NCBI GenBank assembly: GCA_949292245.1
Contig: CASEYV010000001.1
Location: 52,433 to 116,432, forward strand
DNA from: an uncultured bacterium
GTDB lineage: Bacteria > Bacillota_I > Bacilli_A > RF39 > UBA660
Length of the DNA stretch: 64,000 nucleotides
Direction: 5' to 3'
In this document: positions 10,586 through 49,868 of the stretch, piece after piece
How the letters are laid out: the number at the start of each line of letters is the position of its first letter
How positions within the stretch are numbered: the first letter of the stretch is position 1
Program-made: the position numbers and the translations under genes
The notes under the pieces: model-generated
What the model saw: the letters and a program-made list of their open reading frames with translations, nothing else
Told to the model about the DNA's origin: nothing
The model's database searches: none

Positions 10586-10816
10586 TTAGCCAAACATTTC
10601 GGCTTTACGCTGTCTCATACGTTCACGAGAAATAGCTTCTTTCATTTTTCTTCTTCTTTTTTCTGAATTAGATTCAAAAAATCTTTTTAATTTTAATTCT
10701 TTAAGTAATGGAGCTGTCTCATGTCTTAGACGATTTAATGCTTTGTTAATAGCATTTGTATCATTACCTTCAACATAAATGATAGTTCCAGATTTTTTTG
10801 GATTATATTTTTTCAT
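10586..10816 (-). CDS. rpsU: ribosomal protein bS21 homolog (phage-encoded)
   Basis: 76-aa basic protein. IIYVEGNDTNAINKALNRLRHETAPLLKELKLKRFFESNSEKRRRK matches the bS21 consensus (V.V.ENE..EKALRRFKR...K.G.L.E.RRR..YEKPS..RKRK). Confidence 0.75.
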   Translation of the reverse strand: MKKYNPKKSGTIIYVEGNDTNAINKALNRLRHETAPLLKELKLKRFFESNSEKRRRKMKEAISRERMRQRKAEMFG

Positions 10817-13446: not shown

Positions 13447-13474
13447 TTTTTAATCCTTTGTATTTTAATAATAT

Positions 13475-15013: not shown

Positions 15014-15017
15014 GTCA

Positions 15018-15650: not shown

Positions 15651-15735
15651 AATTTTATCCTTAAATATTATAATTTATAATAATATTTATTGAATAAAAA
15701 AATAGCACTTATCTTTTTAATAAGTGCTATTTTAA

Positions 15736-16551
15736 TTATCTTTCATTCATAGGAACTTCAGAATTTTCATAAACAAATCTTGCATAAGTAACAGTAGCAT
15801 TTTTAATTTCAAAAGTAACGGTTTGACCTTTTGAAACAGGTAAATATAATCTTAAATTATCACCTATTCTATTAGCATTCATATGTATTGGTAATGCTGT
15901 TATATACATACCGATAAAACCATCGGCAGCAGAACTTGCACCAGATATACCTATATAACCATTATATAATACTTCATATGTTCCGTTATTTGTAACACTT
16001 GATGATATATCAATATATTTTGAACTTGGTTTATTTAATCCAGGACCAGAAATTTGATACCATGGTGTCCAACTTGATTGTTCATCATCATATGTATTTA
16101 AATTTCTTGCATATATATATTGTCCAGAACCAAAGTTTGATTCAGGTCTGCCACTAAAATGTGCATATTGCCAAGTTGCTTCTTTTAAATAAGAATCCAT
16201 TAAAAATTGTTGATGAACATCGATAAACCATTCACCACGAACAGAAGTATTAACAGGACAATTTAATGTATCTCTTGAATTAGCATCTATTGATACTTTA
16301 TATAATCCAGTTTCATGTATGGAATTAAAATCTGTATCAGCAGATAATGTTATAATATTTAATTTTTTATCTAATTCAGCATTAACATATTCATTAGTAG
16401 CATATTCACCTTTTGCTTGAATACCTAATTCTTCAAGTGTTTTATTACCATTTAATTCTATTGAATTAATTTGAGGTTTATTTAATAATGCAGTATAATT
16501 GGTATTATCTACGTTTCCTGCTATTATTTTATTACCTTGTCTTATACTCAT
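15736..16551 (-). CDS. tail fiber-associated protein sharing the INSIELNGNKTLEELGIQAKGEY module
   Basis: The 125-bp DNA segment 16367-16490 is nearly identical to 17688-17810 inside the next gene. Confidence 0.5.
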   Translation of the reverse strand: MSIRQGNKIIAGNVDNTNYTALLNKPQINSIELNGNKTLEELGIQAKGEYATNEYVNAELDKKLNIITLSADTDFNSIHETGLYKVSIDANSRDTLNCPVNTSVRGEWFIDVHQQFLMDSYLKEATWQYAHFSGRPESNFGSGQYIYARNLNTYDDEQSSWTPWYQISGPGLNKPSSKYIDISSSVTNNGTYEVLYNGYIGISGASSAADGFIGMYITALPIHMNANRIGDNLRLYLPVSKGQTVTFEIKNATVTYARFVYENSEVPMNER

Positions 16552-18836: not shown

Positions 18837-19842
18837 CTGTTGCTAAATTAGGTTTGTTAATAATAACAGCATTACCTTCTTCTGCCAACCAATCTGATTG
18901 AACATTTGGAACTGTATTAGTAATAACATTATTTTCAATAGATATACCATAACCTGTTGTTAAATTATCTTGTTTTTCATTTAATGCTGTTTGCATAGCT
19001 ATTGAAATAGGTTTATTAATATCAGAAGTATTGTTTACATTTCCTAATCCTATTTGTTCTTTTGTTACTTTATGAGGATTTAATGTATTTGAAATGTGAG
19101 AAATTAAATCTGATGCTTCTGCTTTACTTGAAATATCAGATTTTAAAGCATATTCATCTAATGTATCAGTTAAATCATTTTTTAATACATAATTGTCTAA
19201 TGAATTTATTGATGCTTTTGTGTCAACTTCTTCTTTTAATAATTCTAAATCTTCCTTAATAGGTTGGTCATCATAATTAGAAACATTAGCTAATCTTTCT
19301 AATTCTGATATAGATATTAATGAATATCCATCAATTTTATCAACTTTTTTATCTAATTCTTCATTTAATTTATCAACAGATACTATATCACCGGTAATAT
19401 CAGACCAAACAATTTCACCTTGTAATACTTTTAAGTATTTTCCTTCTTGGTCTTCAATAGCTGGTATTTTTAATAAATTATTAAAAAATGTATCAACATC
19501 AGATTTAGAATATGTATTATCAATGTCAGCTTTTAAAGCTAAACCATTAACAACATCTTCATATGAAGCATAATTTCCGATTGGTTGAATACCTAAATCA
19601 ATTAAAGAAACATTTCCATTTAATTCAATATTATTAATTTGAGGTTTATTAATAATATCATAATAATTTATGGTGTCAGCAAAATACTCTAAGTTAGAAT
19701 ATGTATCTACACCATTACCTATTTTTATTTTAGTTTTACCATTATCTAAATATTCAATACCCATTTCACCTTTAGCTAATATAGGATTGATTTCATACCA
19801 ATTTTGTGTAGTATCACGTCTAATTTGTATTTGAACTGCCAT
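18826..19842 (-). CDS. tail fiber proximal module
   Basis: N-terminal MAVQIQIRRDTTQNWYEINPILAKGEMGIEYLDNGKTKIKIGNG is the conserved phage fiber N-terminal motif. It also carries the INNIELNGNVSLIDLGIQ module. Confidence 0.65.
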   Translation of the reverse strand: MAVQIQIRRDTTQNWYEINPILAKGEMGIEYLDNGKTKIKIGNGVDTYSNLEYFADTINYYDIINKPQINNIELNGNVSLIDLGIQPIGNYASYEDVVNGLALKADIDNTYSKSDVDTFFNNLLKIPAIEDQEGKYLKVLQGEIVWSDITGDIVSVDKLNEELDKKVDKIDGYSLISISELERLANVSNYDDQPIKEDLELLKEEVDTKASINSLDNYVLKNDLTDTLDEYALKSDISSKAEASDLISHISNTLNPHKVTKEQIGLGNVNNTSDINKPISIAMQTALNEKQDNLTTGYGISIENNVITNTVPNVQSDWLAEEGNAVIINKPNLATVAI

Positions 19843-19856
19843 AATTAACCTTTAAA

Positions 19857-20450
19857 TTAATTTTTTAATATTTCTTCAACTGTAATTAATGCTTCTGCTG
19901 TTGCATAACTATCACAAGGACCTTCAACAACTAATTCTTTTAATTGCCATCCTAAAGGATTACCAGATGGTGTTTTTGTATTATCAAAATAATTTGCAAT
20001 AACATTAAAATCTTCAACTAATGCTTTAGCAATTAATCTTTTAATAGCTTTTGTTCCAATAAAGAATACTCTACCATCTCTTAATTTAACTATTTCTTCT
20101 TCATCGGCATATTCTGAACTATCAACTTGAACCATTAAACCATCAGCTTGTGTATATACTAATTTGAAATTCATTTTTGTTGGAGGAGTTATATGATTTG
20201 CTCCTTCAGTAGTTACTTCAACCAATGTATCTAAACCTCTTTGTAAATTTAAACACATTTGATTAAATCTTACCAATCCACGGGCTTTAATTTTGTATTG
20301 TTCCAATGTTTCACTTTCGATAGGTTGTGTCATTATATCAAAATCTGAATAATCTGATACTTTTAAATTATCTAAAAATCCTTTTCGAGTATCAGAAGAA
20401 CCAGCGGCGTTTGCTATACTAACTTTATAAATTTTTGTTCCTTGAATCAT
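19857..20450 (-). CDS. hypothetical protein within fiber locus (possible fiber-associated/assembly protein)
   Basis: 197-aa ORF between fiber genes; assignment is from context only. Confidence 0.3.
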   Translation of the reverse strand: MIQGTKIYKVSIANAAGSSDTRKGFLDNLKVSDYSDFDIMTQPIESETLEQYKIKARGLVRFNQMCLNLQRGLDTLVEVTTEGANHITPPTKMNFKLVYTQADGLMVQVDSSEYADEEEIVKLRDGRVFFIGTKAIKRLIAKALVEDFNVIANYFDNTKTPSGNPLGWQLKELVVEGPCDSYATAEALITVEEILKN

Positions 20451-20503
20451 TTTATTTCCTTATAAAAATATTTTTATAAAAATATTTATTAGATTCAGAA
20501 TTA

Positions 20504-22612
20504 TTATGCTTGTTCTAAATTTTCTACTCTTGATGTTAATTCAGTTATTGAAGTTTGCAAGTTTGCAACTTGAGTAATTAAATCCGAAATTGCTTGTGCA
20601 ACACTTATTACACCATCACTATTAATAGTAATTGTATCTTCATCTATTTTAACACCACCTAAAGCCGTTGTAGTAGCGATTGGTAAAACGTATTCAGAAG
20701 GAATAGTTGGCAATCCTGACAAATCGTTGTATAAACCGCTGGTCGCAACGGTTGCCAATGAAGTTGTCAAAGTATAATTTGTCAAATTGTTTACAGAATT
20801 TGTGATAAATCCTGAATCGTTATCTAAATCGCTAACTTTTGTTGGAATGGTTGGCTGATTACTTAAATCATTATATGAACCGCTTGTTGCTACATTAGCT
20901 AAATTCGATGTCAAAGTATAATTTGTCAAATTGTTTACAGAATTTGTAACAAATCCACTATCATTGGTTAAATCACTAACTTTTGTTGGAATAGTTGGCA
21001 ATCCTGACAAATCGTTGTATAAACCGCTGGTCGCAACGGTTGCTAAAGACGATGTTAAAGGATAATTAACTAAATCATTAACTTGATTTGTGATAAAACC
21101 TGAATCATTAGTTAAGTCCGAAGTATTTTCTGGTAATTCTGATTTAAGAGCATAATCACCAGTTGGTTGAATACCTAAATCTGCCAATGATTTATTGCCT
21201 GTTAATTCTATTGAATTAATTTGTGGTTTATTACTTAAATCATTATATGAACCGCTTGTTGCTACATTAGCTAAATCAGTTGTATTCGCTTTCAAATTTA
21301 AAGCGTTTTGAACTGCAGTTGAAATGGGTTTATCAGCGTCAGAAGTATTATCAACATTACTTAATCCGACTTGAGCTTTTGTAACATTATGTGGGTTTTC
21401 AGTATTTGTTGTATGAGTTGTTAAATTTGTTTGGATTGTTTGTTCAGCATTTTGAGCTCTTGTTGATTCCAATGATAAATCAGCAGCTAATTCTCCTTCT
21501 GCCTTTTTAGCTCTAATTTCTTCATTAACAATATCCTCATTCAAAGTATGTTCGGCAGCAGTAGCTCTATCTATTTCATTATCAATTTTTGTATCCAATG
21601 TTTGTTCAGCAGAAGTAGCTCTATCTGTTTCATTATCAATTTTTGTATCCAATGTTTGTTCGGCTTGTGTTGCACGATTAACTTCTGCATCAATTTTATC
21701 ATCAATGTTATCAATATTTTCTTGTAAAGTCTGCTCTGCTTGTTGTGCTCTAGTAATTTCATTATCAATTTTTGTATGAAGATTATCAGTAACTGGTTTT
21801 AATGTTGCAGGAGTAACAGGTTTAACAGTATCAGTACCTGTATTAACCTCTGTTTGTGTTGCTATTTCAACAACACCCATACGAGATGTTGTTGCTTCAT
21901 AAACATTAATAGTATCAGTCATTTTATCGGCTTCGGATTTTGTTAAATAAACATTTTTACCAGCCTTTATAGTTCTCTGAATATCAAAATCTTCTAAAGT
22001 TTTTGCATTAATAAGCTCAACACCGTTAATAGATGGTTTATTATATGTCAAATTATAATCAATAATAGCAGTATTAAATTCTGCTGAAATAACATTGTTT
22101 TCAATTTTTATATTTTTACCAGCAGTTAATTCATCTTGTTTTGAATCTATTGCATTAGCAACTGTTATACCATTATGGTCAATATCTTTAGATGTTAAAA
22201 TTACATTGCCTATTTTACCATTAACGGAAGTAACAGCATCGGAATTATCAATTTTTTGCCAAGAATTATCAGTAGCAATTATCCAATCACCTGTTTCAAA
22301 TGACAATCCAAATCTTTCTCCACCTTGTGATACAACCCAATATTGTCCTTTTTTTGATGGAACTAATGGTAATTGTGGATTATTATTTTTAGCATCCCAA
22401 ACTCCTTGAAATTGTAAATTTCCTAATAAAGAATCATCAATTTCTTCTAATGGGACTTTACCATTTTCATTTAAGTGTGCATAATTTCCGGCAGGTTGAA
22501 TACCATAATCAGCTAATGATTTATCACCCTCAACTACTACTTTGTTAATTAAAGGTTTATTAATTAATTCATTATAATCAATATAATTTGTATATTGGAA
22601 TAATTTTACCAT
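20504..22612 (-). CDS. tail fiber protein with coiled 21-aa repeats and three ~42-aa repeats
   Basis: INKVVVEGDKSLADYGIQ and INSIELTGNKSLADLGIQ modules. The IDNEIDRA..AEQTLDTK repeats occur five times. The SDLTNDSGFITNSVNNLTNYTLTS..ATVATSG.YNDLS repeats occur three times. Confidence 0.7.
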   Translation of the reverse strand: MVKLFQYTNYIDYNELINKPLINKVVVEGDKSLADYGIQPAGNYAHLNENGKVPLEEIDDSLLGNLQFQGVWDAKNNNPQLPLVPSKKGQYWVVSQGGERFGLSFETGDWIIATDNSWQKIDNSDAVTSVNGKIGNVILTSKDIDHNGITVANAIDSKQDELTAGKNIKIENNVISAEFNTAIIDYNLTYNKPSINGVELINAKTLEDFDIQRTIKAGKNVYLTKSEADKMTDTINVYEATTSRMGVVEIATQTEVNTGTDTVKPVTPATLKPVTDNLHTKIDNEITRAQQAEQTLQENIDNIDDKIDAEVNRATQAEQTLDTKIDNETDRATSAEQTLDTKIDNEIDRATAAEHTLNEDIVNEEIRAKKAEGELAADLSLESTRAQNAEQTIQTNLTTHTTNTENPHNVTKAQVGLSNVDNTSDADKPISTAVQNALNLKANTTDLANVATSGSYNDLSNKPQINSIELTGNKSLADLGIQPTGDYALKSELPENTSDLTNDSGFITNQVNDLVNYPLTSSLATVATSGLYNDLSGLPTIPTKVSDLTNDSGFVTNSVNNLTNYTLTSNLANVATSGSYNDLSNQPTIPTKVSDLDNDSGFITNSVNNLTNYTLTTSLATVATSGLYNDLSGLPTIPSEYVLPIATTTALGGVKIDEDTITINSDGVISVAQAISDLITQVANLQTSITELTSRVENLEQA
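20690..21110. repeat. about 126-bp tandem DNA repeat, 3 copies, inside fiber gene
   Basis: Near-identical copies are visible, e.g. the recurring segment ggcaatcctgacaaatcgttgtataaaccgctggtcgcaacggttgc. Confidence 0.6.
21480..21790. repeat. about 63-bp tandem repeat, 5 copies (coiled-coil repeats of the fiber)
   Basis: The segment tgtttgttcagcagaagtagctctatctgtttcattatcaatttttgtatccaatg recurs. Confidence 0.55.
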
Positions 22613-30493: not shown

Positions 30494-30588
30494 AAAAATT
30501 AAACCTTTGCGATAAATTAAAACAAATATATCCGAATGGTTATAAATTAGAAAACGAATGGTAAAAAGAGGAGCAAATGCTCCTCTTT

Positions 30589-31116
30589 TTATTCAATATT
30601 TATAAGTTTAATTTCTTCTTCTTTTTCTTTTTTATCTTTAAATTCAATAGTCAAAAGACCATTTTCCAATGAAGATTTGACAAATTCTAATGAATCACAC
30701 ATCTTCCATGAATTTTCAAATTCTCTCATTGCGATACCTTTATAGCAATATACTCTTCCTTCACCATCACAAAAAACTCCACTTCCTTCCATAGTAAAAT
30801 CGTCTTTGCCCCTTTTTCCTTTTGAACCTTTAACAGTCAAGACATTAGTTTTTGTATTATATGTTATTTTTAACATATCTTTGGTATATCCAGCACAAGC
30901 TAACTGAATAAAAGTATGAACTTCTTTATGACAATCTGCTTCTTTACCATTGTCATTACAAACATTTACTTCTTCTGTAAAAATACTATATGGTGGGAAA
31001 GTTGTTTCTTTAAAAGAATTACTAAATTTATCTAAATCATCAAAAAAATCTGAAAATCCAATAAGATTACGTTTATTATTAAAGACATCAAAAAATGTCA
31101 TCAAATTATTTGCCAT
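30589..31116 (-). CDS. small heat-shock protein, Hsp20/alpha-crystallin family
   Basis: Alpha-crystallin-like core (ITYNTKTNVLTVKG...REFENSWKMCDSLEFVKSSLENGLLTIEF) and a C-terminal I-x-I motif (LINIE). Confidence 0.6.
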   Translation of the reverse strand: MANNLMTFFDVFNNKRNLIGFSDFFDDLDKFSNSFKETTFPPYSIFTEEVNVCNDNGKEADCHKEVHTFIQLACAGYTKDMLKITYNTKTNVLTVKGSKGKRGKDDFTMEGSGVFCDGEGRVYCYKGIAMREFENSWKMCDSLEFVKSSLENGLLTIEFKDKKEKEEEIKLINIE

Positions 31117-31202: not shown

Positions 31203-32456
31203 TCAATTTTCAATATTATTTGACAAATATTTTATCATTTCTTCGTGATAAATTTCACCAAATTTTTTTCCAGAAAATTTAGAAAGTCTTTCTTGAACTT
31301 TTTCTGGTAAATCTTTTAAAGTTATGCCGTGCATAACATCAAAAATTTTTAACATTCTTTGTTCAATTTTTTGTCTTTCTATTTTTTCTTCATCTGAAAC
31401 TGTTAATGCTCTACCATAACAATCACATCTAGTTACTTCAATGAAATCAATCAATCTTTGACGATTTTTGAAATTTAATGAAATAGCTTTAATCATATCG
31501 TATTGCTTTCTTAGCTTCATTTGATGAAATCTATGAGCATTCATATGATAACGACAAGATATTAAAGCAAAATCACGATATTCATTTGGAATTTTAACTC
31601 TATCACATAATTTTTCAATTACTGATAATCCATTAAATTCATGACCATGATGAGCTGGTAAAATATCTTGTGGAGTTAATGCTTTACCTAAATCATGACA
31701 CAATACAGCAAATTTAACCATTGGAGATAATTGATTCCAATCAGCAACTCGCAAACACAACATTGTATGTTCAAAAGAATTACCTTCTGGATGATATTCC
31801 AATTTTTCTGGAGTATCAATTAAAGCATACAATTCTGGAAGAACAATTTTTAATGCTCCACTTTCTTGGAGATTTCTAATGAATTTTTCTGTTATACAAT
31901 TAGATTGTAATGCTTTTTCAATTTCTTTCCATACTCTTTCTTCTGTTAAGTGTTCAATCATTTTATTTTCAACCATCGTTTGCAATAAATTCATAGTATT
32001 TCTTTCAATATTAAAATCTAATTGAGCTGAAAAACGGCAAGCTCTTAATAATCTTAATGGGTCTTCGATAAAAGTTTCATCACGAACAGCTCGTAATAAT
32101 TTATTTTTTAAATCATCTTGACCATTAAAATAATCAATTACATTTCCATTTTCATCTAATGCCATAGCATTAATTGTAAAATCTCTACGAACTAAATCAT
32201 CTTCCAAAGAAACATCAGATGAAAATTCAAATTCAAAATCAGTATGTTTATCACCAATTTTTCTTTCTTTTCTTGCTAAAGCATATTCTTCGTTTGTTTC
32301 TGGGTGTAAAAACACAGGAAAATCTTTACCTACTTGGTGAAAACCAAGAGATTCCATTTCGGAAATAGAAGAACCAACAACAACATAATCATTATCATGT
32401 GATGTTCTATCTAATAATTTATCTCTAACTGCCCCACCAACTAAATAAGTTTTCAT
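31203..32456 (-). CDS. cca: CCA-adding tRNA nucleotidyltransferase (class II, with HD domain)
   Basis: N-terminal LVGGAVRDKLL, the RRDFTINA-type head domain and an HD motif (CHDLGKALTP, HHGHE). Confidence 0.85.
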   Translation of the reverse strand: MKTYLVGGAVRDKLLDRTSHDNDYVVVGSSISEMESLGFHQVGKDFPVFLHPETNEEYALARKERKIGDKHTDFEFEFSSDVSLEDDLVRRDFTINAMALDENGNVIDYFNGQDDLKNKLLRAVRDETFIEDPLRLLRACRFSAQLDFNIERNTMNLLQTMVENKMIEHLTEERVWKEIEKALQSNCITEKFIRNLQESGALKIVLPELYALIDTPEKLEYHPEGNSFEHTMLCLRVADWNQLSPMVKFAVLCHDLGKALTPQDILPAHHGHEFNGLSVIEKLCDRVKIPNEYRDFALISCRYHMNAHRFHQMKLRKQYDMIKAISLNFKNRQRLIDFIEVTRCDCYGRALTVSDEEKIERQKIEQRMLKIFDVMHGITLKDLPEKVQERLSKFSGKKFGEIYHEEMIKYLSNNIEN

Positions 32457-32467
32457 TTAACAATCCT

Positions 32468-32701
32468 TTATAAAATATCTTTCATATATAAAAATCTTAA
32501 AATTTGTATTGAATATGGTTTATTTACTTCATTGATATTAATATCAAAATTAGAATATCTTAAAAATAAATTATTATTTTGTTGCTTAACTATAAAAGAT
32601 TGATATTCATGAATTGGTTCTTTAATGCCAAATTCTACTAAAATCAAATCTCCGTCTTTTAATTTATTTTTATTATTTTCCCAATTTAACCATTTACTCA
32701 T
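32468..32701 (-). CDS. hypothetical protein
   Basis: 77-aa ORF. Confidence 0.3.
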   Translation of the reverse strand: MSKWLNWENNKNKLKDGDLILVEFGIKEPIHEYQSFIVKQQNNNLFLRYSNFDININEVNKPYSIQILRFLYMKDIL

Positions 32702-32772
32702 TTAATTCTCTTAAAAATAAAATACACTCATTTAAATATTATGAGTGTATTTTATCAGAAATTATTTTAATG

Positions 32773-33924
32773 TCAAGCATTTTTAATAAAATCTTCAACC
32801 ATATCGGCTAATTTATCATAAGTTAAATCGCTAATATATTGCATAGCACAATCGTATTTGTTATCGATAGCTTTAAACATATAATTAGAGAACTTACAAT
32901 TTTTTAATATGTATTGAGCTTTATCTTTTCTGCTTTCTAATGAATTGATGTAATCAATATTAGAGTTATATTCATCATCGATTGCGTTAATCAATGAGTG
33001 ATATCCATCTAACATTCTTTGAATATTTAATTTATATTCAGAGAAATAATTTAAGAATTCATCAATTTCATTATTGACAATTAATATCATTGCTTTTTTA
33101 GGAGTTAAAATTCCTTGTCCTTTCAAATGATGCACTGCAACATAAGATGGAGATTTAACTTTAACTCTATTGAAATTTTTATCTACAACGACATATCCTT
33201 CTTCTGTATATGGTAATTCATTTGCTGCCAAAATACATTCATTTAATGATTTAAAACCATATTGTTTTGGAGTTTTAAATATTTTTGCCAAAGGATGGTC
33301 ATAAATTAAAATTTCTTCTAATGATTTGTTATTTCTAACACCAATCAAGCATAAATTAATTCCTTCATAAGGAATAACAACTTTATTATATGGTGAAATT
33401 AATTCAAACATATAAGTATAGTTTTCTTCGAATAAATCTAACCATTTATCTTTTGAAATTGATTTTAATGGTTCAGCATTTTCAATTAATTCCTTATAAT
33501 TAGAATATTTAAAATCTAAATTTTGAGCAACTTCGGCTTTTGAAGCATCGATAGTTCCATTAGTAGAAATCAACAAATCATTACCCAATCTAACTATTTT
33601 AATTAAAGAACCGTCAATTTTTTGAGTAATTTTAGCAGATTTCCAATCTATTTCTGGACAATATGATTCACCATAATTTCCAAATTTGTAGAATGGAACA
33701 GATACTGGTTCTAATGAATCAATATCAATAATCAATCCACGGCATTCTCTAACGATTTCATTATTAAAATCAGAAGAAATTTGGTTATATTTTAATAATG
33801 CTAAATTTCTACCATACATATTATCTTTAGATACAGATATACAATATGGAGATTGAGCTAAATCATCTTCCCAATTTTTATGTGATTTAATATATTCAAT
33901 AACTTTTAACATTTCAATCTCCAT
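32773..33924 (-). CDS. rnlA: RNA ligase 1 (T4 RnlA-like)
   Basis: Motif I TQKIDGSL (KxDG). ECRGLIIDIDS aligns with T4 ECRGIMFEMDG. EGYVVVDKNFNRVKVKSPSYVAVH aligns with [24 protein letters not shown]. Confidence 0.85.
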   Translation of the reverse strand: MEIEMLKVIEYIKSHKNWEDDLAQSPYCISVSKDNMYGRNLALLKYNQISSDFNNEIVRECRGLIIDIDSLEPVSVPFYKFGNYGESYCPEIDWKSAKITQKIDGSLIKIVRLGNDLLISTNGTIDASKAEVAQNLDFKYSNYKELIENAEPLKSISKDKWLDLFEENYTYMFELISPYNKVVIPYEGINLCLIGVRNNKSLEEILIYDHPLAKIFKTPKQYGFKSLNECILAANELPYTEEGYVVVDKNFNRVKVKSPSYVAVHHLKGQGILTPKKAMILIVNNEIDEFLNYFSEYKLNIQRMLDGYHSLINAIDDEYNSNIDYINSLESRKDKAQYILKNCKFSNYMFKAIDNKYDCAMQYISDLTYDKLADMVEDFIKNA

Positions 33925-33988
33925 TAAAAAAACTCATCTATTTAAGATGAGTTTAATATATCATAATTTATTTTAATGTCAACACATT

Positions 33989-34249
33989 TTATATATTTTC
34001 TTCTGAACTTTCTAAAATCAAATATTTACCTTCATTAAGACCTTTTTCATAAGATTCATTTTTGATTTTTTCTTCAATTCTTTCATCTATTTCATCTAAT
34101 GAATGAATTAAATATTCTTTAATCAACTTTAATTCCGATAATGAACAATTATTAAGCTCATTATCATTGGTTTCATTCATAATACCACCAAATTCTTCAC
34201 AGTCAGCATTGACAATAGAAATGTATGTTTTCAATGTTTTTATTGACAT
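33989..34249 (-). CDS. hypothetical acidic protein
   Basis: 86-aa ORF. Confidence 0.3.
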   Translation of the reverse strand: MSIKTLKTYISIVNADCEEFGGIMNETNDNELNNCSLSELKLIKEYLIHSLDEIDERIEEKIKNESYEKGLNEGKYLILESSEENI

Positions 34250-34250
34250 A

Positions 34251-34847
34251 TTATTCTCCCAATATTTTTATTTGCTGATATATAGTTTCTTCAGCTTTTA
34301 AAATCATTTGCTTGTAAATTTTAAACATTATTGAAGAATCATCTTGAAACAATTCTTTCGCTCTCTTAATAAATTCTTCTTTTTCACCAAGATACTTTTT
34401 AGCAAATGAAGAATCTCTTTTAACAATATCATGACAGTTGTCAATAATATCAGCCAATTTAACAATTATAGAATCAATACTACCTTTTAAAGTATGTTCC
34501 ATATCTATCATTTTTCTAATTTTGCGATTTCCATCTTCTGGTTTAGAAATGTTTGTTAAATATTCAACATTTTTACTATAATATTCTCCAAATAAACTTT
34601 CTATTTCTTCCAATGTAGCATCAGTATCTTCAACAGTATCATGTAGATAAGCCAATTCTTCTAAACGATAGATTATATCCAAATCCATAGGTTGAATATC
34701 AGAGCAAATTTTACTAATTATTTTAGCAACACTAATAGGGTGAGTAATATATGATTCACCTGTATATTTTCTTGTTTGACCTTTATGTTTTTCAGTCGCA
34801 TAATCTAATATTTTATCGTGTTTAAAATCTCTATATTCACTACTCAT
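34251..34847 (-). CDS. small alarmone hydrolase, RelA/SpoT-type HD domain (Mesh1/SAH-like)
   Basis: KHKGQTRKYTGESYITHPISVAKII aligns with SpoT HRKGQFRKSGEPYITHPLAVAEIL. AYLHDTVEDTDATLEEIESLFGE aligns with ALLHDVVEDTDVTLEEIEERFGP. IIVKLADIIDNCHDI aligns with ILIKLADRLHNMRTL. Confidence 0.7.
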   Translation of the reverse strand: MSSEYRDFKHDKILDYATEKHKGQTRKYTGESYITHPISVAKIISKICSDIQPMDLDIIYRLEELAYLHDTVEDTDATLEEIESLFGEYYSKNVEYLTNISKPEDGNRKIRKMIDMEHTLKGSIDSIIVKLADIIDNCHDIVKRDSSFAKKYLGEKEEFIKRAKELFQDDSSIMFKIYKQMILKAEETIYQQIKILGE

Positions 34848-35028
34848 TTTTTAATATCCAATCATTTGATAATATATATTCTGTTTTTAATCCGTAAATT
34901 GGTAAATCATTTAATCCATCATTTACAAATAATTGATTACCAACAAAATAAAAATAATTTGTAGTTAATGATGGAATATAACAATGATTTCCTTGCTTCA
35001 TTTTTGGTAAAATTTCTTCAAATGTCAT
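34840..35028 (-). CDS. hypothetical small protein
   Basis: 62-aa ORF in a tandem array of small ORFs. Confidence 0.3.
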   Translation of the reverse strand: MTFEEILPKMKQGNHCYIPSLTTNYFYFVGNQLFVNDGLNDLPIYGLKTEYILSNDWILKNE

Positions 35029-35036
35029 TTTTATTC

Positions 35037-35246
35037 CTAATTAATTATATCAGAATCTGAAATTGATGCGAAATCATATGTATATAATACATCAGGTTTT
35101 TTAATTGTCAATGGAAATGTTTTATGGTCACTATTTTGCATAATAGCTTCCATAAAATCTTTTTTAGTAGTTGCATTTTCTACTTCCAATACAACACTTT
35201 CCACATATTTAACTGTTCTATTGATTATTACTTTTCCCATCTTCAA
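35037..35246 (-). CDS. hypothetical small protein
   Basis: 69-aa ORF. Confidence 0.3.
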   Translation of the reverse strand: MKMGKVIINRTVKYVESVVLEVENATTKKDFMEAIMQNSDHKTFPLTIKKPDVLYTYDFASISDSDIIN

Positions 35247-35433
35247 TTCCCAATAATTTTTTATAATTAATATCCATAACTTTGTTTGTTATTTCGGATT
35301 CTTCATAAAATCTGTCTTGACCATCAACAATTCCTAATGCCCACAATAATTGAATAAATCGTAATTGAGGACAAGCATCGACAATTTTAGATATTTTTTC
35401 TACAATTTGTTTATTTTCTTCAAGTCTTGACAT
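35218..35433 (-). CDS. hypothetical small protein
   Basis: 71-aa ORF. Confidence 0.3.
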   Translation of the reverse strand: MSRLEENKQIVEKISKIVDACPQLRFIQLLWALGIVDGQDRFYEESEITNKVMDINYKKLLGIEDGKSNNQ

Positions 35434-35473
35434 ATTTTTTCTCCATTATTGTAAATCTTCTTGTGATACCATT

Positions 35474-35671
35474 TTATTTCCCTTTATTTTTTAAGTCTTT
35501 TAATGCTTTATTATAAAGTTTATTAGCAATTAATTCATTTCTATAATGAAATTTATTCTTTTTAATTTTTTCAATTACATTATCAATATCAATTTTATCT
35601 GAACCTCTTTCTTTTTTAGATAATTCTTCATTAAGTTTTTCAACTTCTTCATATTCAAATTCGTCTTGCAT
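35474..35671 (-). CDS. hypothetical small protein
   Basis: 65-aa ORF. Confidence 0.3.
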   Translation of the reverse strand: MQDEFEYEEVEKLNEELSKKERGSDKIDIDNVIEKIKKNKFHYRNELIANKLYNKALKDLKNKGK

Positions 35672-35679
35672 ATAAATCC

Positions 35680-36177
35680 TTATCTATGTAATTTAATATT
35701 ATATTGTTCACAATCTTTTTTAAACATATCAAATGTTTCATCTTCACCAACTAAAAATAACCAAGAACAAGTATGTTCATTTCTGGTGCAATTAATCATA
35801 CCATAATTATCCATAGTTGCATTATCGCATACTGTAATATCATATTTTTGTTTAGTTTTTGTATCCATTAAATCCAATAATTCTTTTTGAGCTTTAAATG
35901 GATATGTGCTATCCATAATATGACCTTGACACCATTCATCTGTATATTTAAACAAAAGATTCCAAATATCTTTATTTGAACCTTCTAAAACTACTGTCGT
36001 TCCAAAACCTTCACCTTCATTTATCCAATTTTGAAAGTATTGATTATCATTTTTATTATTGGAAGACATAAATTCTTTTACAAATTGAGCTGAAGCATGT
36101 GATGCTTGTGCCATGGCTTTTCCAGCATTCAAAGATGGTAAATCATTTCTCATAAAAATATATAAAACTTGTTTCAT
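35680..36177 (-). CDS. peptidyl-tRNA hydrolase, PTH2 family
   Basis: VLYIFMRNDLPSLNAGKAMAQASHAS matches the PTH2 core [25 protein letters not shown]. Confidence 0.6.
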   Translation of the reverse strand: MKQVLYIFMRNDLPSLNAGKAMAQASHASAQFVKEFMSSNNKNDNQYFQNWINEGEGFGTTVVLEGSNKDIWNLLFKYTDEWCQGHIMDSTYPFKAQKELLDLMDTKTKQKYDITVCDNATMDNYGMINCTRNEHTCSWLFLVGEDETFDMFKKDCEQYNIKLHR

Positions 36178-36231
36178 ATCAATATCTCCTATATTGATGA
36201 TAATAACAAATATATATTTTTAAGTCAATAG

Positions 36232-36732
36232 TTATTCGTATGTTTTTTTAAATTTGTGTTTAATTTTTTTAAATACTTTTTCTTGCTCTATTTCTAATCC
36301 AAGTTTTCTATATTCACCAGCTAAATCATCTGCAATATTATTATAGTATGATAATTTGGTTCCATCGTGAATATGACCTTTTATTTGCATAAATTTTACT
36401 TTTTTTCTTGTAAAATCTAAAAAATCATATATATAATTTAGGCAAGATGATTCAAATTCATCTTGCCCTTTATTTCTTTGTGAAATTTTTCTTAACGCAG
36501 TTGCAGAATCAGAAATAATTGTAATTGTTTTATCATCCATTCTATCTACAATTTTATTATTACAAATATATTGAATAGCCATAGCAATTGCAGCAATTTC
36601 CGCTACATTATTATCACGACATTTATTTGTATATGTTCCAAAAGTATGTTCTCTACCTTTATATAAAAGAACCGCACCAAATCCACTCATACGAGGTTTT
36701 AATGAGTGACTTCCATCAGTAAATATAATCAT
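36232..36732 (-). CDS. rnhA: ribonuclease HI
   Basis: IIFTDGSHS...GFGAVL...TNNVAEIAAIAMAI fits the RNase H1 DEDD fold order (TDGS...G.G.V...TNN.AE..A...AL). Confidence 0.7.
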   Translation of the reverse strand: MIIFTDGSHSLKPRMSGFGAVLLYKGREHTFGTYTNKCRDNNVAEIAAIAMAIQYICNNKIVDRMDDKTITIISDSATALRKISQRNKGQDEFESSCLNYIYDFLDFTRKKVKFMQIKGHIHDGTKLSYYNNIADDLAGEYRKLGLEIEQEKVFKKIKHKFKKTYE

Positions 36733-36763
36733 ATTATTTCCTTTGGTGCTTCTATATAATTAT

Positions 36764-37207
36764 TTATTTGTCTAATAATCCTAAAAATTTTTGGATATTT
36801 TTAATTTCATCCGATGTCATTGATTGATATTTTAAATCAAACTCATCATCTGATAAATTTTTATAAAAATTTCTAATTAAATTATAATTTTTATCATTTT
36901 TATTTTTAGATTGAGCTATCCATTGATGTTTAAATGATTTATTTAATCCACAAGTGCATAACAATTTAAATTGTAAATCTTTATATTTTGATAATTCCCA
37001 ATAATGAGTATTAACATTATTATTAACTAATTTTGTTAATTGTATATGTTGTTTTTCTTGTCCATATATTGCCGACATCCAACGACATAATGTATAAGGT
37101 TGAATTTCTTTTTGTTGTTCTGACGATAAAGATTCAAAATATTGATAATTTTTATTATCAATATTTTTTAATACATCAAAAATATCATTTTTATAAGTTT
37201 TAGCCAT
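36764..37207 (-). CDS. hypothetical protein
   Basis: 147-aa ORF. Confidence 0.35.
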   Translation of the reverse strand: MAKTYKNDIFDVLKNIDNKNYQYFESLSSEQQKEIQPYTLCRWMSAIYGQEKQHIQLTKLVNNNVNTHYWELSKYKDLQFKLLCTCGLNKSFKHQWIAQSKNKNDKNYNLIRNFYKNLSDDEFDLKYQSMTSDEIKNIQKFLGLLDK

Positions 37208-37671
37208 TAATTATCTCCATATTTATATAATACACATTTTATTGGAGATTTTGCAAAAATATCTTCAATAATTTTATATACAATATTCCAATCACCACCA
37301 GCTAATCCACAACCTATTTTATAAGGTATAGCCACCGATAAATTATTATATTCGGCATATTCTTTTACTTGATTTAATGATAATTTTAATGATTCATAAT
37401 CCGTTTGTAAACCAGTTCCATATGATAATTGACCAAAACAATTCATAACATATTTTGAATTATCAACATTTACAATTTGAGTATAACCCATTAAACTATT
37501 TGGAAATTTTTTATATAAATCACATAATATTTTATATTTGTCAAAAATTACAGGATATTTTTTTCTTAATTGTAGAGCTAAACCAGCTCCCATTACTCCT
37601 AAACAATTTGTTTGATGGACAATTATATTTTCCGAACAATTTAATATATTACCATTTATAATATCAATCAT
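37207..37671 (-). CDS. macro domain protein (ADP-ribose binding / processing)
   Basis: NIIVHQTNCLGVMGAGLALQL aligns with YmdB VIVNAANPSLMGGGGVDGAI. LSVAIPYKIGCGLAGGDW aligns with TSVAFPAISTGVYGYP. Confidence 0.75.
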   Translation of the reverse strand: MIDIINGNILNCSENIIVHQTNCLGVMGAGLALQLRKKYPVIFDKYKILCDLYKKFPNSLMGYTQIVNVDNSKYVMNCFGQLSYGTGLQTDYESLKLSLNQVKEYAEYNNLSVAIPYKIGCGLAGGDWNIVYKIIEDIFAKSPIKCVLYKYGDN

Positions 37672-45119: not shown

Positions 45120-47354
45120 TTATTCCCCAAAATAAATTTTATTATCTTTTATTTTTAATAATATTTTTCCACCATTTTTATATTTTCCAAAAACAATATC
45201 TTTTGCTATCACATTTTTAATTTCATTAGTTATTATATGTTTCATAGGTCTAGCACCGTTATTGGAATTTTCAACCTTTTTAACGATATAATTTATTATA
45301 TCATCATTATATTCAAAATCAATCATTTTTTTTGACAAAATAGATTTTAATTCGTCCAAAAATTTTATGCAAATTGTTTTTAATACATCTGATGACAAAT
45401 TATTAAAAGTAATAGTTGAATCAATTCTATTTCTAAATTCAGGTAAAAATCTATCTTCATAATCTTGGTCAGATGGTGTATAATCATCATTACCAAAACC
45501 AATTCGTATTTTATGAGAATTATACGAACCGACATTTGATGTCATAATTAAATAAACATGCTCAAATGAAACTGATTTACCAGATGATGAAGTCAATTTA
45601 CCATTATCCATTACTTGTAATAAAACATTATGTATTTTAGAATTAGCTTTTTCAATTTCATCTAATAATAAAATACAAGATGGATGTTCATCAATAGCAT
45701 TAATTAATAAACCATTACCTGATTTACCATCTCCGAAACCTTTATATCCAGGAGGAGCACCTAGTAATTTAGACACACTATGTTCTTCCATATATTCAGA
45801 CATATCAAATCTAACCAATGGAATATTCAAAATTTTTGACAATACTTTACATATTTCTGTTTTACCGACACCAGAAGAACCTTTAAACATCAAAGATATA
45901 GCCGTTTTATTTGTTTCTCTTAATCCAGATTTAGAAATAATAACAGCTTCACTGACTTTTTTTACAGCTTCATCTTGTCCAATAATTTCTTTTTTTATAG
46001 TATTTTCTAAATTTTTATAAATTTCTTCTTCTGATAAAGAAATATTATTTAAAGGTATGCCTAATAATATAGACAATACTTTATAAATCATATCTTCTGA
46101 TATTTCTTTTTCATTGTGATATGTAGCATAAGCTCCGACTGTATCTAAAATATCAATCGCTTTTTCAGGAAAAAACTTATTATAAAAATATCTATTACAA
46201 TAATCCATTATTAAATCAATTATTTTTTCTGAAAAAGTAACATTAAAATTATTTTCATATAATGATTTAATATTCATTATAATATTTTTAGTTTCATCAA
46301 ATGATGGTTCTTTAACAGTAAATTTAAAAAAGTTTTTTACAAAATTGTCATCTTTTTCAATAAACCTACGATAATCTTCATTAGTTGTAATGCCAATAAT
46401 TTTAATTTTACCATCACAAAGCATTGGCTTAAATAATGATGATAAATCATTTTGACTTGAATAATCACCATTTCCACACATAAAATGTATGTCATCAATA
46501 ATTAAAACTACATTTTCTTTTTTATTTAAAATATTATGTAATGTTTTTACTCTATTTTCAATTTCACCTTTAACCATAATATTTGCAGTAAAAGATAAAT
46601 TATCTAATAATAGAAATTCTTTATCAGTATATTTTTCACTGTAAATTTTTGCCAAGCCTTCTACTAACTTAGATTTACCAACACCATGATTACCAACAAG
46701 TATAATATTTGGTTTATCATGTCTTAATAAAATATATTGTAACAACTCTAATTCATCATCACGACCAATTAAAGGTTGCCATTCTTTCCCCTTTACTTTT
46801 TCAGTTAAATTAATTGTATATTGTGATAAAAATAATTGTTCTTTTTTATTTGAAGAACCATCTAATGTTTCATTTATAATTTCTGATACACGATTAGACA
46901 TATTAGATGAATAAGATTGATAAATTTTTGTCAAAAATAATGGACTAACATTATTTGACAATAATATTTTTTGAGAAAAAGTTTCTTCCATAAACAAAAA
47001 AGATGCAATGACATTTGTTATAAATAAAACATCTTTATTTATAACAACATCTTCATTACATTTATGACATAGATTGCAATATCCTAAAAATACCAAAACA
47101 TGTGGAGAAATTTCTATATTATCGCTTGAACTTTCTATATGTTCCATTAAAGGATAATTAGAAATAAAATCTTCTAATTCTTTTGTAATTTTTTTATAAT
47201 CAATTTTATATTTTTTAAATAACTTTAAAAAATGTTCGTCTTTCATAACGACATATAAAACATGTTCCAAATGAACATATTTTGAACTATAATTTTGGGC
47301 CACTTTTTTTGATTCATTAATAAGTTCTTGTAATCTTTCAACAAAATCAATCAT
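45120..47354 (-). CDS. ClpA-like AAA+ unfoldase (Clp_N domain, two AAA modules, IGF ClpP-docking loop)
   Basis: D1 Walker A LVGNHGVGKS and D2 Walker A FKGSSGVGKTE. The sensor is GARPMKHII. KIRIGFGNDD...FRNRID aligns with the ClpA IGL loop RKSIGLIHQDN...FRNRLD. Confidence 0.8.
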   Translation of the reverse strand: MIDFVERLQELINESKKVAQNYSSKYVHLEHVLYVVMKDEHFLKLFKKYKIDYKKITKELEDFISNYPLMEHIESSSDNIEISPHVLVFLGYCNLCHKCNEDVVINKDVLFITNVIASFLFMEETFSQKILLSNNVSPLFLTKIYQSYSSNMSNRVSEIINETLDGSSNKKEQLFLSQYTINLTEKVKGKEWQPLIGRDDELELLQYILLRHDKPNIILVGNHGVGKSKLVEGLAKIYSEKYTDKEFLLLDNLSFTANIMVKGEIENRVKTLHNILNKKENVVLIIDDIHFMCGNGDYSSQNDLSSLFKPMLCDGKIKIIGITTNEDYRRFIEKDDNFVKNFFKFTVKEPSFDETKNIIMNIKSLYENNFNVTFSEKIIDLIMDYCNRYFYNKFFPEKAIDILDTVGAYATYHNEKEISEDMIYKVLSILLGIPLNNISLSEEEIYKNLENTIKKEIIGQDEAVKKVSEAVIISKSGLRETNKTAISLMFKGSSGVGKTEICKVLSKILNIPLVRFDMSEYMEEHSVSKLLGAPPGYKGFGDGKSGNGLLINAIDEHPSCILLLDEIEKANSKIHNVLLQVMDNGKLTSSSGKSVSFEHVYLIMTSNVGSYNSHKIRIGFGNDDYTPSDQDYEDRFLPEFRNRIDSTITFNNLSSDVLKTICIKFLDELKSILSKKMIDFEYNDDIINYIVKKVENSNNGARPMKHIITNEIKNVIAKDIVFGKYKNGGKILLKIKDNKIYFGE

Positions 47355-49118: not shown

Positions 49119-49868
49119 TTATGAATAAACACGAATATTATATCCAGATGGATAAATTTGTTTTAATACTTCTCCAAAATATTTTTTAGTTAAGGATATG
49201 GCTTCATTCTCATCTTCTGAAGGTGATATTTCAGCCCATAATTCAACTAATTTTGGACATAAAACACCAATAATATCTTTATCGGATAAACGTAAATCAA
49301 CATTATCCATGACATCTCCATGAATCCAACGATTACCATTCCATACATATAAAATATTTTTTAATGGATTATATATAAATCTTAAATCATTTTTTTCTAA
49401 TTCTGATTGAATCCAATTAATAGATGGATTTTTAATTATTCTCAAATTTTCAAATTTTTCAGAAGCACTATTATATGCTAAATCATCAAAACATACAGAT
49501 TCTTGAAACTTTTGACGCATTTTTTCAACAGTTTCTTTTGGAACATTATGAACATTTTGATAATTTCCTTCACATACTTTTATTTCAACTTTATAGTTAT
49601 ATTCTTTTGCTAAATCAACATATGGTTGATAATCTTTAACTTTAATAAAAGTATTAGCTACAGCAATAGTAGGACGACCTTCTTGCATATATTTTTCAAC
49701 AGTTTCTTTGCATTTTTGATGAGCCATATGCAATTTAGATGGATGCCATCTATATTCACCGTCTTCATACATAAATTGGTCAGCTTCAACAACATTATCG
49801 GTTAATTTATGTGCCAAAGTTGATTTTCCAGAGCCAGGAACACCACGAATTATGTATAAAATATTCAT
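49119..49868 (-). CDS. P-loop kinase, polynucleotide 5'-kinase-like (T4 Pnk kinase-domain-like), no HAD phosphatase domain
   Basis: MNILYIIRGVPGSGKSTLA aligns with T4 Pnk KKIILTIGCPGSGKSTWA. No DxDxT motif is found. Confidence 0.45.
   Translation of the reverse strand: MNILYIIRGVPGSGKSTLAHKLTDNVVEADQFMYEDGEYRWHPSKLHMAHQKCKETVEKYMQEGRPTIAVANTFIKVKDYQPYVDLAKEYNYKVEIKVCEGNYQNVHNVPKETVEKMRQKFQESVCFDDLAYNSASEKFENLRIIKNPSINWIQSELEKNDLRFIYNPLKNILYVWNGNRWIHGDVMDNVDLRLSDKDIIGVLCPKLVELWAEISPSEDENEAISLTKKYFGEVLKQIYPSGYNIRVYS

Follow-up and report, generated by a model that had tools for sequence, protein, structure and literature searches.

The stretch of DNA considered here, a window of 64,000 nucleotides (nt) on contig CASEYV010000001.1 (assembly GCA_949292245.1), carries a compact minus-strand gene block encoding a class II CCA-adding enzyme, an Rnl1-family RNA ligase, a small alarmone hydrolase (SAH)-like HD enzyme and a PTH2-fold hydrolase, together with an RNase HI and a macro domain protein. 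The core of this set, namely the CCA-adding enzyme, an RNA ligase and PTH2, joined less consistently by SAH and macro domain proteins, is found repeatedly in close proximity in unrelated large phages, often beside tRNA arrays. Since the same families occur together in many unrelated large phages, the grouping looks functional. The reading favoured here, to which somewhat better than even confidence is attached, is that the block is a real, conserved accessory region, one part of which, termed sub-block A below, forms a tRNA salvage neighbourhood.

The grouping was surveyed outside the lineage of the window. IMG/VR loci covering ±10 kb around an anchor gene were searched with hidden Markov models (HMMs) iterated from the window proteins, and with ARAGORN. 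The survey comprises 45 independent clusters (819 kb) for PTH2 and 53 clusters (979 kb) for the CCA-adding enzyme, with the accessory gene PhoH as control anchor (30 clusters, 404 kb). CCA, PTH2, Rnl1, Rnl5-like, RtcB, SAH and macro genes were counted as partners. Per 100 kb, 2.93 partner genes and 11 tRNAs are present around PTH2, 2.25 and 14 around the CCA-adding enzyme, and 0.25 and 2.5 around PhoH. The partner density is 9-12 times that of the control (conditional binomial, p = 6e-4 for PTH2 and 4e-3 for CCA), and 48 of the 49 partners lie on the strand of their anchor. Single-protein scans of IMG/VR had returned two loci without anything else in common with the window for the Rnl1 query, and none for the PTH2 query; the IMG/VR surveys that followed them are alignment-based.

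The individual loci differ in order and in the type of ligase. Three of them (L095, L097 and L121) share the arrangement Rnl1 - SAH - PTH2 - CCA over about 7.7 kb, which recurs with Rnl5 in L118, while L109 carries Rnl1 - CCA - PTH2 and L155 carries SAH - Rnl1 - CCA. tRNA genes are part of the neighbourhood in L143 (24 tRNAs - CCA - RtcB - Rnl5 - kinase), L178 (tRNAs - CCA - RtcB), Ruegeria phage RpAliso (CCA - 26 tRNAs - PTH2) and Rhizobium phage RHph_I1_18, in which PTH2, a homing endonuclease, a nucleotidyltransferase and a phosphoesterase are followed by tRNAs. Macro domain genes are included in the L009 group (PTH2 - macro - Rnl1, plus a second PTH2 and an Rnl5-like ligase) and in Sinorhizobium phage phiN3 (PTH2 - gp224 - Appr-1-p macro, then a metallophosphoesterase and an RNA ligase). 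In the cultured Cronobacter phage GAP32 (L341, record 101395-122018), the order is RNA ligase - ribosome hibernation factor - CCA - Nudix - macro; the ligase is of the PHA02142 type, the hibernation factor is S30EA and the Nudix protein is NudE, and this translation-related CCA island also encodes a DUF2828 RNA-binding protein, a glutaredoxin and a YqeY-like 'tRNA amidotransferase'. The distances are often short: the gap between CCA and PTH2 is at most 1.3 kb in seven of nine scored cases (two of the nine being one IMG/VR contig), CCA and RtcB are separated by 0.8-2.8 kb, and for three of the six CCA-Rnl1 pairs the distance does not exceed 0.7 kb. PTH2 directly adjoins SAH twice, and the gap between PTH2 and the macro gene is below 1 kb in two of three.

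A different combination is seen in a 29-locus IMG/VR cluster, where SAH is accompanied by an Rnl1-like gene of ~300 amino acids (aa). Pairs of this kind are present in L266, L268, L289, L306 and L311, among others, with 15-27 tRNAs alongside in some, and several of the pairs overlap or abut (gaps of -8 to +1 nt). These abutting and overlapping pairs suggest that the SAH-like HD enzyme may heal 3' ends for the Rnl1-like ligase.

With a guanine-cytosine (GC) content of about 25%, the window is assigned from its sequence to an AT-rich jumbo myovirus distantly related to the Rak2/GAP32/CBB/BF group, a placement based on structural genes, with a baseplate hub that is about 30-33% identical. A megablast search of the block against GenBank phages gave no match, so there is no close nucleotide relative among them. 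An exact look-up of the window Rnl1 in public assemblies had no hit, and homologues of the PTH2-like protein were found on metagenomic contigs of 180-390 kb. The lineage relatives compared are neighbourhoods at 91%, 68%, 55% and 50% PTH2 identity and five IMG/VR relatives. Down to 50-55% PTH2 identity the order gp62-like subunit - RNase H - PTH2 - (small open reading frames) - SAH - (variable position) - CCA is kept, with one rearrangement in L004. Hsp20 follows CCA in L003, L004, L006 and L019-23, and was not detected in L008.

The variable position is occupied by Rnl1 in the window and by an RtcB-family ligase, located exactly between SAH and CCA, in L008; in L006 the interval consists of a short intergenic region and a small open reading frame (ORF) only. 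No Rnl1 homologue was found within ±10 kb in L003, L004, L006 or L008. In the window, Rnl1 is flanked by two promoter-hairpin copies, in which TTGACATTAAAATAAnTTnnGATA is followed by a 10-12 bp hairpin and a T-run. Element 1 reads TTGACA-16-TATATT with TG, a 10-bp hairpin and a T-run, and the two elements are direct repeats that agree at 82% of positions across some 95 nt. With up to 3 mismatches allowed, the 64-kb window contains no copy besides these two, against 0.17 expected. The RtcB gene of L008 is preceded by a -10 box and a hairpin nearly identical to those 5' of the window Rnl1, and the two stems differ by a compensatory change (ACTCAT/ATGAGT vs ACCCAT/ATGGGT). Rnl1 and RtcB, two unrelated RNA ligases, thus sit behind one orthologous regulatory element. 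As Rnl1 is replaced by RtcB behind the same promoter-hairpin, the ligase position is a swappable cassette. The presence of two unrelated RNA ligases at one position, behind one element, argues that RNA ligation is selected there, and the swap is the strongest single argument for RNA ligation as the selected function of this position. It also provides a clean natural experiment and a handle on the movement of counter-defence cassettes between jumbo phages.

A scan of the window for sigma-70 promoters gave 110 sites where 99 were expected, which is not above background in DNA of 25% GC, and only individual strong sites and terminators were used from it. In the window (at 27620 and 36228) and in all relatives (L004, L006 and L008), many intergenic gaps of the accessory region contain cTTGACA-N17-TATAAT, often overlapping a hairpin. 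Given such promoters in many gaps, the accessory region may consist of many small, early-type transcription units served by the host RNA polymerase.

Profile searches agree with the families that the initial annotation had given to its ORFs. The CCA-adding enzyme matches PF01743 (PolyA_pol head) with 81.8 bits against a cut-off of 23 and PF12627 (RNA-binding) with 3e-9, and its HD domain matches PF01966 (1e-4, 22.9 bits against a cut-off of 22). The score against the E. coli-type NCBIfam model NF008137 'multifunctional CCA addition/repair protein' is 435.5 bits, just below the cut-off of 451. The motifs G7-G8-A-V-R11-D12 and D21-N-D23 are invariant across 10 homologues. The ligase matches PF09511 with 55.5 bits (cut-off 28.3) and carries motif I (KxDG) as K102-I-D-G. 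TIGR02308 covers its residues 39-380, and with them both domains, at 4e-24 and 85.5 bits, which is below the equivalog cut-off of 242; its predicted membership in Rnl1 is therefore at the family level only, below the level of a T4 RnlA equivalog.

For the SAH-like protein, PF13328 is matched with 40.9 bits (cut-off 27.2), and the best match in the PDB is MESH1 (4e-14). Residues H21, H36, H69-D70, E73-D74, K130, D133 and N137 do not vary among 12 phage homologues, and by this full H..HD..ED..K..D..N set the protein is predicted to be a small alarmone hydrolase of the RSH hydrolase/Mesh1 type. Its nearest GenBank phage match is from Klebsiella phage pJN2-26, with 36.6% identity. To our knowledge, phage SAH enzymes have been used solely as neutralisers of toxSAS in co-expression experiments. 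Located between PTH2 and an RNA ligase, the window enzyme equally suggests a general role in the healing of RNA 3' ends. In published biochemistry, MESH1 and ATfaRel take the 3'-pyrophosphate off tRNA and thereby restore aminoacylation of FaRel2-modified tRNA, and the SAH PaSpo of phage SSU5 has been published as neutralising toxSAS toxins.

The PTH2-like protein of the window has the PTH2 fold. The motif G19-K20-AMAQ-ASH27 is invariant, and D89 is kept in at least 90% of 38 homologues; the catalytic residues, which we take from the literature on Sulfolobus Pth2, are presumably the Lys of GKxxAQxxHA and the Asp of the second motif. The Pfam match is limited to residues 4-69, the score against NF003314 (28 bits) is below its cut-off of 126, and some 40 family-specific residues are inserted in the stretch from about residue 94 to residue 131. 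The protein is therefore best assigned to a divergent phage subfamily of PTH2. Among phages of Alphaproteobacteria and some metagenomic ones, namely phiN3 (L013), Erythrobacter phage L02 (L012), Caulobacter phage CcrBL9 (L018) and L009, PTH2 adjoins genes of NAD+ salvage, namely a nicotinamide phosphoribosyltransferase, an NMN adenylyltransferase/Nudix protein, a PRPP-synthetase-like protein and an AAA_28-domain protein. On account of the neighbours in phiN3, L02 and CcrBL9, a function in NAD+/ADP-ribose metabolism was considered for PTH2 and dropped, as the fold and the catalytic motifs are those of PTH2. NAD+ salvage genes are counter-defence genes themselves and could merely share an island with PTH2, and such loci may be composite counter-defence islands. 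We know of no experimental characterisation of a phage-encoded PTH2, and no paper tying phage PTH2 to anti-defence by experiment was found in the literature. The repeated location of PTH2 and SAH beside CCA-adding enzymes, RNA ligases and tRNA arrays provides a concrete, testable context for both.

In the favoured reading, Rnl1 would reseal nicks left in anticodon loops by host defences. Before ligation, the P-loop kinase encoded elsewhere in the window would phosphorylate the 5' end, and an HD phosphoesterase, either the HD domain of the CCA-adding enzyme or the SAH-like protein, would clear the 3' end. The CCA-adding enzyme would restore trimmed tRNA 3' ends, and the SAH-like enzyme would strip a 3'-(pyro)phosphate from tRNA or hydrolyse alarmones. 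PTH2 would free peptidyl or N-blocked aminoacyl groups, so that tRNAs caught in stalled translation could be recycled. Between them, these activities could in principle mend all types of damage to tRNA ends. We infer the substrates, the host systems countered and an early expression from the sigma-70-like promoters; the defence targets named in the initial annotation, namely toxSAS enzymes, GNAT toxins and anticodon nucleases, are speculation.

A bolder version, which is regarded as unlikely, unites the CCA-adding enzyme, PTH2, the SAH-like protein and the swappable ligase in one pathway that resets tRNA ends. Here, the Mesh1-like HD protein would be the missing end-healer, stripping 3'-pyrophosphate, 3'-phosphate or 2',3'-cyclic phosphate and thus feeding both the CCA-adding enzyme and either ligase, while PTH2 would clear acyl or peptidyl blocks. 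Such a pathway would counter toxSAS enzymes, anticodon nucleases and GNAT toxins together, and the ligase would be exchanged by recombination between promoter-hairpins as host nucleases change.

All ORFs of the initial annotation are present on one strand, and the features of the block and its surroundings are listed in Table 1. The 147-aa, 77-aa and 86-aa ORFs, the downstream Hsp20 gene and the ART-PolyVal gene, which encodes an ADP-ribosyltransferase (ART), were absent from that annotation. The ORFs of the block are closely packed, with gaps of -29 to +86 nt. A division into two sub-blocks is considered somewhat probable. Sub-block A would serve tRNA salvage and comprise PTH2, the small ORFs, the SAH-like gene, the ligase cassette and CCA; sub-block B would be directed at DNA and comprise the probable gp62-like subunit and RNase HI, possibly with the DarG-type macro domain protein. 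The four small ORFs are kept at 62-94% in L003 and L004 and gave no match against PHROG, and the number of small ORFs between PTH2 and SAH differs among relatives. A homologue of the 86-aa ORF (61%) lies directly downstream of HD_4 in L004.

Table 1. Features of the gene block and related features elsewhere in the window, in order of position
Feature	Positions	Strand	Match or remark
tRNA-Arg(ACG), 3'-CCA genomically encoded	3910-3987	-	ARAGORN; Rfam 64.8 bits
bS21-like ORF	10586-10816		just under curated cut-offs
ART-PolyVal ADP-ribosyltransferase, 538 aa	28877-30493	+	PF18760 2.5e-17; convergent with block
Bidirectional intrinsic terminator	30560-30593	both	13-15 bp stem, between Hsp20 and ART
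Hsp20 small heat-shock protein	30589-31116	-	PF00011 2e-6; phrog_432 4e-20; last gene of minus-strand block
Class II CCA-adding enzyme with C-terminal HD domain, 417 aa	31203-32456	-	PF01743 7e-23; phrog_2244 9e-122
77-aa ORF	32468-32701	-	11 nt upstream of CCA gene; no family match
Promoter-hairpin element 2	32715-32776	-	3' of Rnl1, 5' of 77-aa ORF and CCA
Rnl1-family RNA ligase, 383 aa	32773-33924	-	PF09511 9e-15; phrog_562 2e-54
Promoter-hairpin element 1	33930-33982	-	directly 5' of Rnl1
86-aa ORF	33989-34249	-	start one base past HD_4 stop; no family match
SAH-like HD hydrolase (Mesh1/SAH family, HD_4), 198 aa	34251-34847	-	PF13328 2e-10
Four small ORFs, 65, 71, 69 and 62 aa	34840-35671	-	no family match
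PTH2-fold hydrolase, 165 aa	35680-36177	-	
Sigma-70-like promoter 5' of PTH2, TTGACT-17-TATTAT with TG extension	36200-36228	-	consensus match only
RNase HI, 166 aa	36232-36732	-	PF00075 4e-17
147-aa ORF, probably gp62-like clamp-loader small subunit	36764-37207	-	phrog_11758 4e-20
Macro domain protein, 154 aa	37207-37671	-	PF01661 4e-8
P-loop kinase (AAA_33), 249 aa, G9-VPGSGKS	49119-49868	-	PF13671 6e-12; phrog_505 'polynucleotide kinase' 3e-8
Second RNA ligase, intein-split, PHA02142/Rnl5-like	57001-59544	-	OB fold PF21189 2e-9; PF09414 2e-18; Intein_splicing 6e-6; N-part ORF 58612-59544, C-part ORF 57001-57720
Free ORF between the ligase halves, 293 aa	57677-58558		phrog_22677; no Pfam match

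Several features outside the block bear on the same subject. The initial annotation had pointed to a tRNA-Arg, a bS21, a Pnk-like kinase and a second, intein-split RNA ligase elsewhere in the window; the tRNA-Arg, the split ligase and the P-loop kinase were found again, the bS21-like ORF stays just under the cut-offs, and the kinase gave no phosphatase domain. This kinase is a candidate 5'-kinase for Rnl1-dependent repair, and a homologue of its kinase domain is the immediate neighbour of Hsp20-CCA in L003. The second ligase is split directly past nucleotidyl-transferase motif I (K205-V-H-G / C-A-D-Y), with the junction of the C-part at ...ILVHN/S, and the intein looks naturally split. A ClpB-like ATPase with two AAA+ domains (45120-47354, minus strand; phrog_4871, 4e-194) is encoded as well; together with Hsp20, it represents the phage's own proteostasis genes, both of which are conserved in relatives.

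A number of observations weigh against a tRNA salvage neighbourhood in which all members are functionally coupled. Some of them concern the survey. When the placement of partners was compared with uniform placement within a locus, the pooled proximity test gave p of about 0.12-0.16 for PTH2 and about 0.02 for CCA. With loci of at least 15 kb only, 13 of 37 (PTH2) and 13 of 40 (CCA) are positive vs 1 of 13 for PhoH (Fisher p 0.056 and 0.075). The contigs behind the PhoH control are short and probably derive from phages of other kinds, so that genes sharing a genome, rather than local linkage, may account for some of the enrichment. Each single partner family is present within 10 kb of just 11-16% of the independent PTH2 loci. 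In an SAH-anchored scan of 42 independent clusters, PTH2 was found in none, CCA in one and an RNA ligase in six, which makes SAH the loosest member of the tRNA set. Other observations concern the content of the window. Profile searches detected neither a HAD nor another phosphatase domain in the 249-aa P-loop kinase, which moreover lies 11 kb away from the block. Homologues of the RNase HI, searched by iterated HMM, occur only inside the lineage of the window and in none of the outside loci. The statement of the initial annotation that every component acts on tRNA ends could not be upheld: RNase HI, the gp62-like ORF and Hsp20 are without a tRNA role, the former two probably forming a replication-type pair within the block, and the macro domain protein best matches DarG.

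The assignment of the pair relies on profile and motif matches. Because four of 16 members of the 147-aa ORF family match phrog_225 'clamp loader of DNA polymerase' (best E 8e-7), the ORF is probably a gp62-like small subunit of the clamp loader, acting in DNA replication. The profile gave no match against PDB sequences. The ORF is kept at 59-75% in all lineage relatives, and two further lineages (L140/L141/L144/L156 and L260/L265/L312/L334) have homologues at a distance of 3-5 kb from a CCA or SAH gene. The RNase HI matches PF00075 with 63.3 bits (cut-off 25.8), and a motif reading gives D6, E45, D75 and D135/136 as candidate DEDD residues. The 'ribonuclease' beside PTH2 in RpAliso was tried as an RNase H homologue and rejected, as the HMM gave no support.

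The alternative that survives best concerns the macro domain protein, which may act on DNA as a protein of the DarG/TARG1/BT1257 type. It would then belong to an ADP-ribose/DNA axis, either removing DarT-type ADP-ribose from phage single-stranded DNA at replication forks, in the manner of DarG and together with the clamp-loader subunit and RNase HI, or restraining or reversing the phage's own ART-PolyVal. This is seen as a tentative, somewhat doubtful explanation. The best curated matches of the protein are to DarG in two libraries, NCBIfam (NF048014, 4e-20, profile positions 1-147, 72 bits against a cut-off of 250) and PADLOC (3e-21); the 154 aa cover only the macro half of these profiles, which have 338 and 329 positions. 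Across the window proteins, PADLOC matched only this protein and, weakly, the P-loop of the kinase. The closest PDB entries are BT1257 (2fg1), 5e3b, 5m3i, the ADP-ribose 1''-phosphate phosphatase 6lfu and O-acetyl-ADP-ribose deacetylase 1/C6orf130 (4j5r); 5m3i, deposited as 'RNase III inhibitor', is presumably M. tuberculosis DarG, and C6orf130 is taken to be TARG1. The macro gene immediately adjoins the gp62-like ORF and RNase HI. ART-PolyVal, a possible partner of the macro domain, is encoded 7 kb away; its homologues also flank the block in all relatives, in several of which the flanking gene matches the P-loop kinase of the window as well, and in L004 (4844-8467) a polyvalent protein of 1207 aa contains the ART domain together with DUF5662.

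Against such an axis stands the location of macro genes elsewhere, close to CCA in the GAP32 cluster (1.3-1.9 kb) and in L145/L148 (1.2 kb), and close to PTH2 in phiN3 (0.2 kb) and L009 (0.9 kb), in each case without a detected RNase H or clamp-loader neighbour. TARG1-type macro domains also take ADP-ribose off RNA ends that carry a phosphate, and a by-product of tRNA splicing is a substrate of Poa1p-type enzymes. Within the lineage, the macro gene is present in L003, L004, L019 and L020 and absent from L006, L008 and L021-23, which keep the replication pair without it. The protein is thus ambiguous: its sequence suggests that it clears ADP-ribose off DNA or acts as a partner of ART, while its position near CCA and PTH2 in other phages points to the RNA set.

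Tolerance of insertions would explain the block in another way. The tRNA-related genes would then share a region merely as non-essential genes, without functional coupling, and promoter-hairpin cassettes would shuffle freely. The region is indeed mosaic, as expected where insertions are tolerated: gene-by-gene identities vary widely, with CCA at 89% in L004 and 46% in L003 but PTH2 at 91% in L003 and 68% in L004; homing endonucleases (T5orf172, NUMOD3), which L003 carries, occur inside the block, along with up to ten variable small ORFs; and replication genes and Hsp20 are interspersed. The synteny in relatives, proposed as a check by the initial annotation, is largely kept in order, but the macro and Rnl1 genes are variable. 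The flanking structural genes are colinear in the lineage relatives too, and lineage synteny alone is therefore no proof of functional linkage; the non-significant pooled proximity test around PTH2 fits the same picture. Mere tolerance is nevertheless judged improbable. The same families meet in many unrelated lineages with different flanks and at a multiple of the PhoH density, CCA often has PTH2 or a ligase at a distance below 1.3 kb, and at one position the same regulatory element heads Rnl1 in one phage and the unrelated RtcB in another.

The genes could also perform housekeeping of translation during a long jumbo-phage infection, keeping up the phage's own tRNAs and the translation machinery of the host, with repair of CCA turnover, recycling after drop-off and hydrolysis of (p)ppGpp against the stringent response, rather than counter-defence. 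Large tRNA arrays near these genes in many phages, the bS21-like gene and the tRNA in the window, the hibernation factor and YqeY-like protein in the CCA island of GAP32, and the bona fide (p)ppGpp hydrolases among the members of the SAH family are in line with this. The sole tRNA of the window, however, already encodes its CCA, so that the CCA-adding enzyme is not needed for its maturation, which speaks against a purely maturational role, at least there. Rnl1 and RtcB are established as repairing broken RNA, we know of no part of either ligase in routine bacterial tRNA maturation, and the turnover of the ligase cassette suggests an arms race. Housekeeping in place of counter-defence is considered rather unlikely, and it overlaps with the favoured tRNA salvage neighbourhood and is compatible with it.

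The tRNA salvage neighbourhood points to a defence by large phages that extends beyond the anticodon loop to the entire tRNA 3' end, with its CCA, phosphate status and acyl status. What it offers is a specific gene set open to testing and the natural ligase-swap experiment, not a new principle; in practice, it provides a short list of candidate genes for tests against PrrC/RloC, CapRel/FaRel2, AtaT/TacT and DarT. The tRNA counter-measure locus put forward in the initial annotation is supported in part, by the proximity of CCA, ligase and PTH2 in unrelated phages and by the ligase swap, but SAH is loosely linked and replication genes lie inside.

Three further regions of the window are side observations. 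The tail-fibre region (12121-22612, minus strand) contains large ORFs whose translations have repetitive Ala/Thr/Lys-rich segments, for example GKYATKAQGTKADTAVQP, which occurs many times. At 5442-6924 (minus strand), two adjacent ORFs are homologous to ORFs of relatives with N6_N4 DNA methyltransferase domains. A match to a DNA methyltransferase family (phrog_363) at 63347-63940 (minus strand) is restricted to the N-terminal ~75 residues.

The idea of counter-defence by these families is already published, and the claim that the locus goes beyond anything described was overstated. In sections 3.4.8-3.4.9 of Iyer et al. 2021 (PMC7824862), Rnl1/Rnl2/RtcB, Pnk, the CCA-adding enzyme, PTH2, macro domain proteins and the HD alarmone hydrolase of jumbo phages are described as counter-measures against attacks on translation, and PTH2 is proposed to release peptides from cleaved tRNAs. 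As presented in these sections, the survey lists families per genome and files the HD alarmone hydrolase under counter-nucleotide systems, not RNA repair; they describe neither a CCA-PTH2-SAH-ligase neighbourhood nor a ligase swap at a fixed position. Section 3.7.3 of Iyer et al. 2022 (PMC9503650) presents other phage RNA-repair neighbourhoods, composed of sirtuin/2H/Nudix/cREC and sirtuin/ligase/cREC/kinase/MazG. Relative to these sections, the tight physical grouping of CCA, PTH2, SAH and ligase, in part with macro, is new, as are its repeated occurrence next to tRNA arrays and the swap between Rnl1 and RtcB.

Among the known systems, PaSpo of Salmonella phage SSU5, MESH1 and ATfaRel are members of the RSH hydrolase family, as is the SAH-like protein of the window, which has the full set of catalytic motifs. 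The macro domain protein aligns over its full length with the macro half of DarG in both NCBIfam and PADLOC, but does not contain the C-terminal half of the DarG models and scores 72 vs 250 bits. This C-terminal half is the DarT-binding part of DarG. No ORF neighbouring the window macro gene matched the PADLOC model of DarT, the neighbours being the gp62-like ORF and a structural gene. In the Rak2 group (GAP32, probably Serratia phage BF), CCA, a macro gene at 1.3-1.9 kb and a PHA02142-type ligase at about 6 kb are likewise located on one strand next to structural genes. This group differs from the window in that no PTH2 and no SAH were detected up to 10 kb from CCA; it has instead the ribosome hibernation factor, the DUF2828 RNA-binding protein, Nudix, glutaredoxin and the YqeY-like protein.

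The elements around Rnl1 are similar to promoter-early stem-loops (PeSLs), mobile regulatory cassettes of T4-type phages which Arbiol et al. are said to have described in 2010. In both, a variable gene of a highly plastic region is flanked on either side by a sigma-70-like promoter followed by a hairpin, and the same element stands in front of different genes in relatives. There is no sequence relationship, and the likeness is one of architecture only. A further parallel is T4 Pnk/Rnl1, which counters PrrC. Like T4, the window encodes an Rnl1-family ligase, here with an intact KxDG and a match across the full-length family model, and a P-loop polynucleotide-kinase-like protein. In contrast to T4, the kinase of the window lies 11 kb off and has no detected HAD phosphatase, so that healing of the 3' end would fall to an HD enzyme. 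Furthermore, the ligase of the window is a dispensable cassette, replaced by RtcB or absent in sister phages, and it is accompanied by CCA, PTH2 and SAH.

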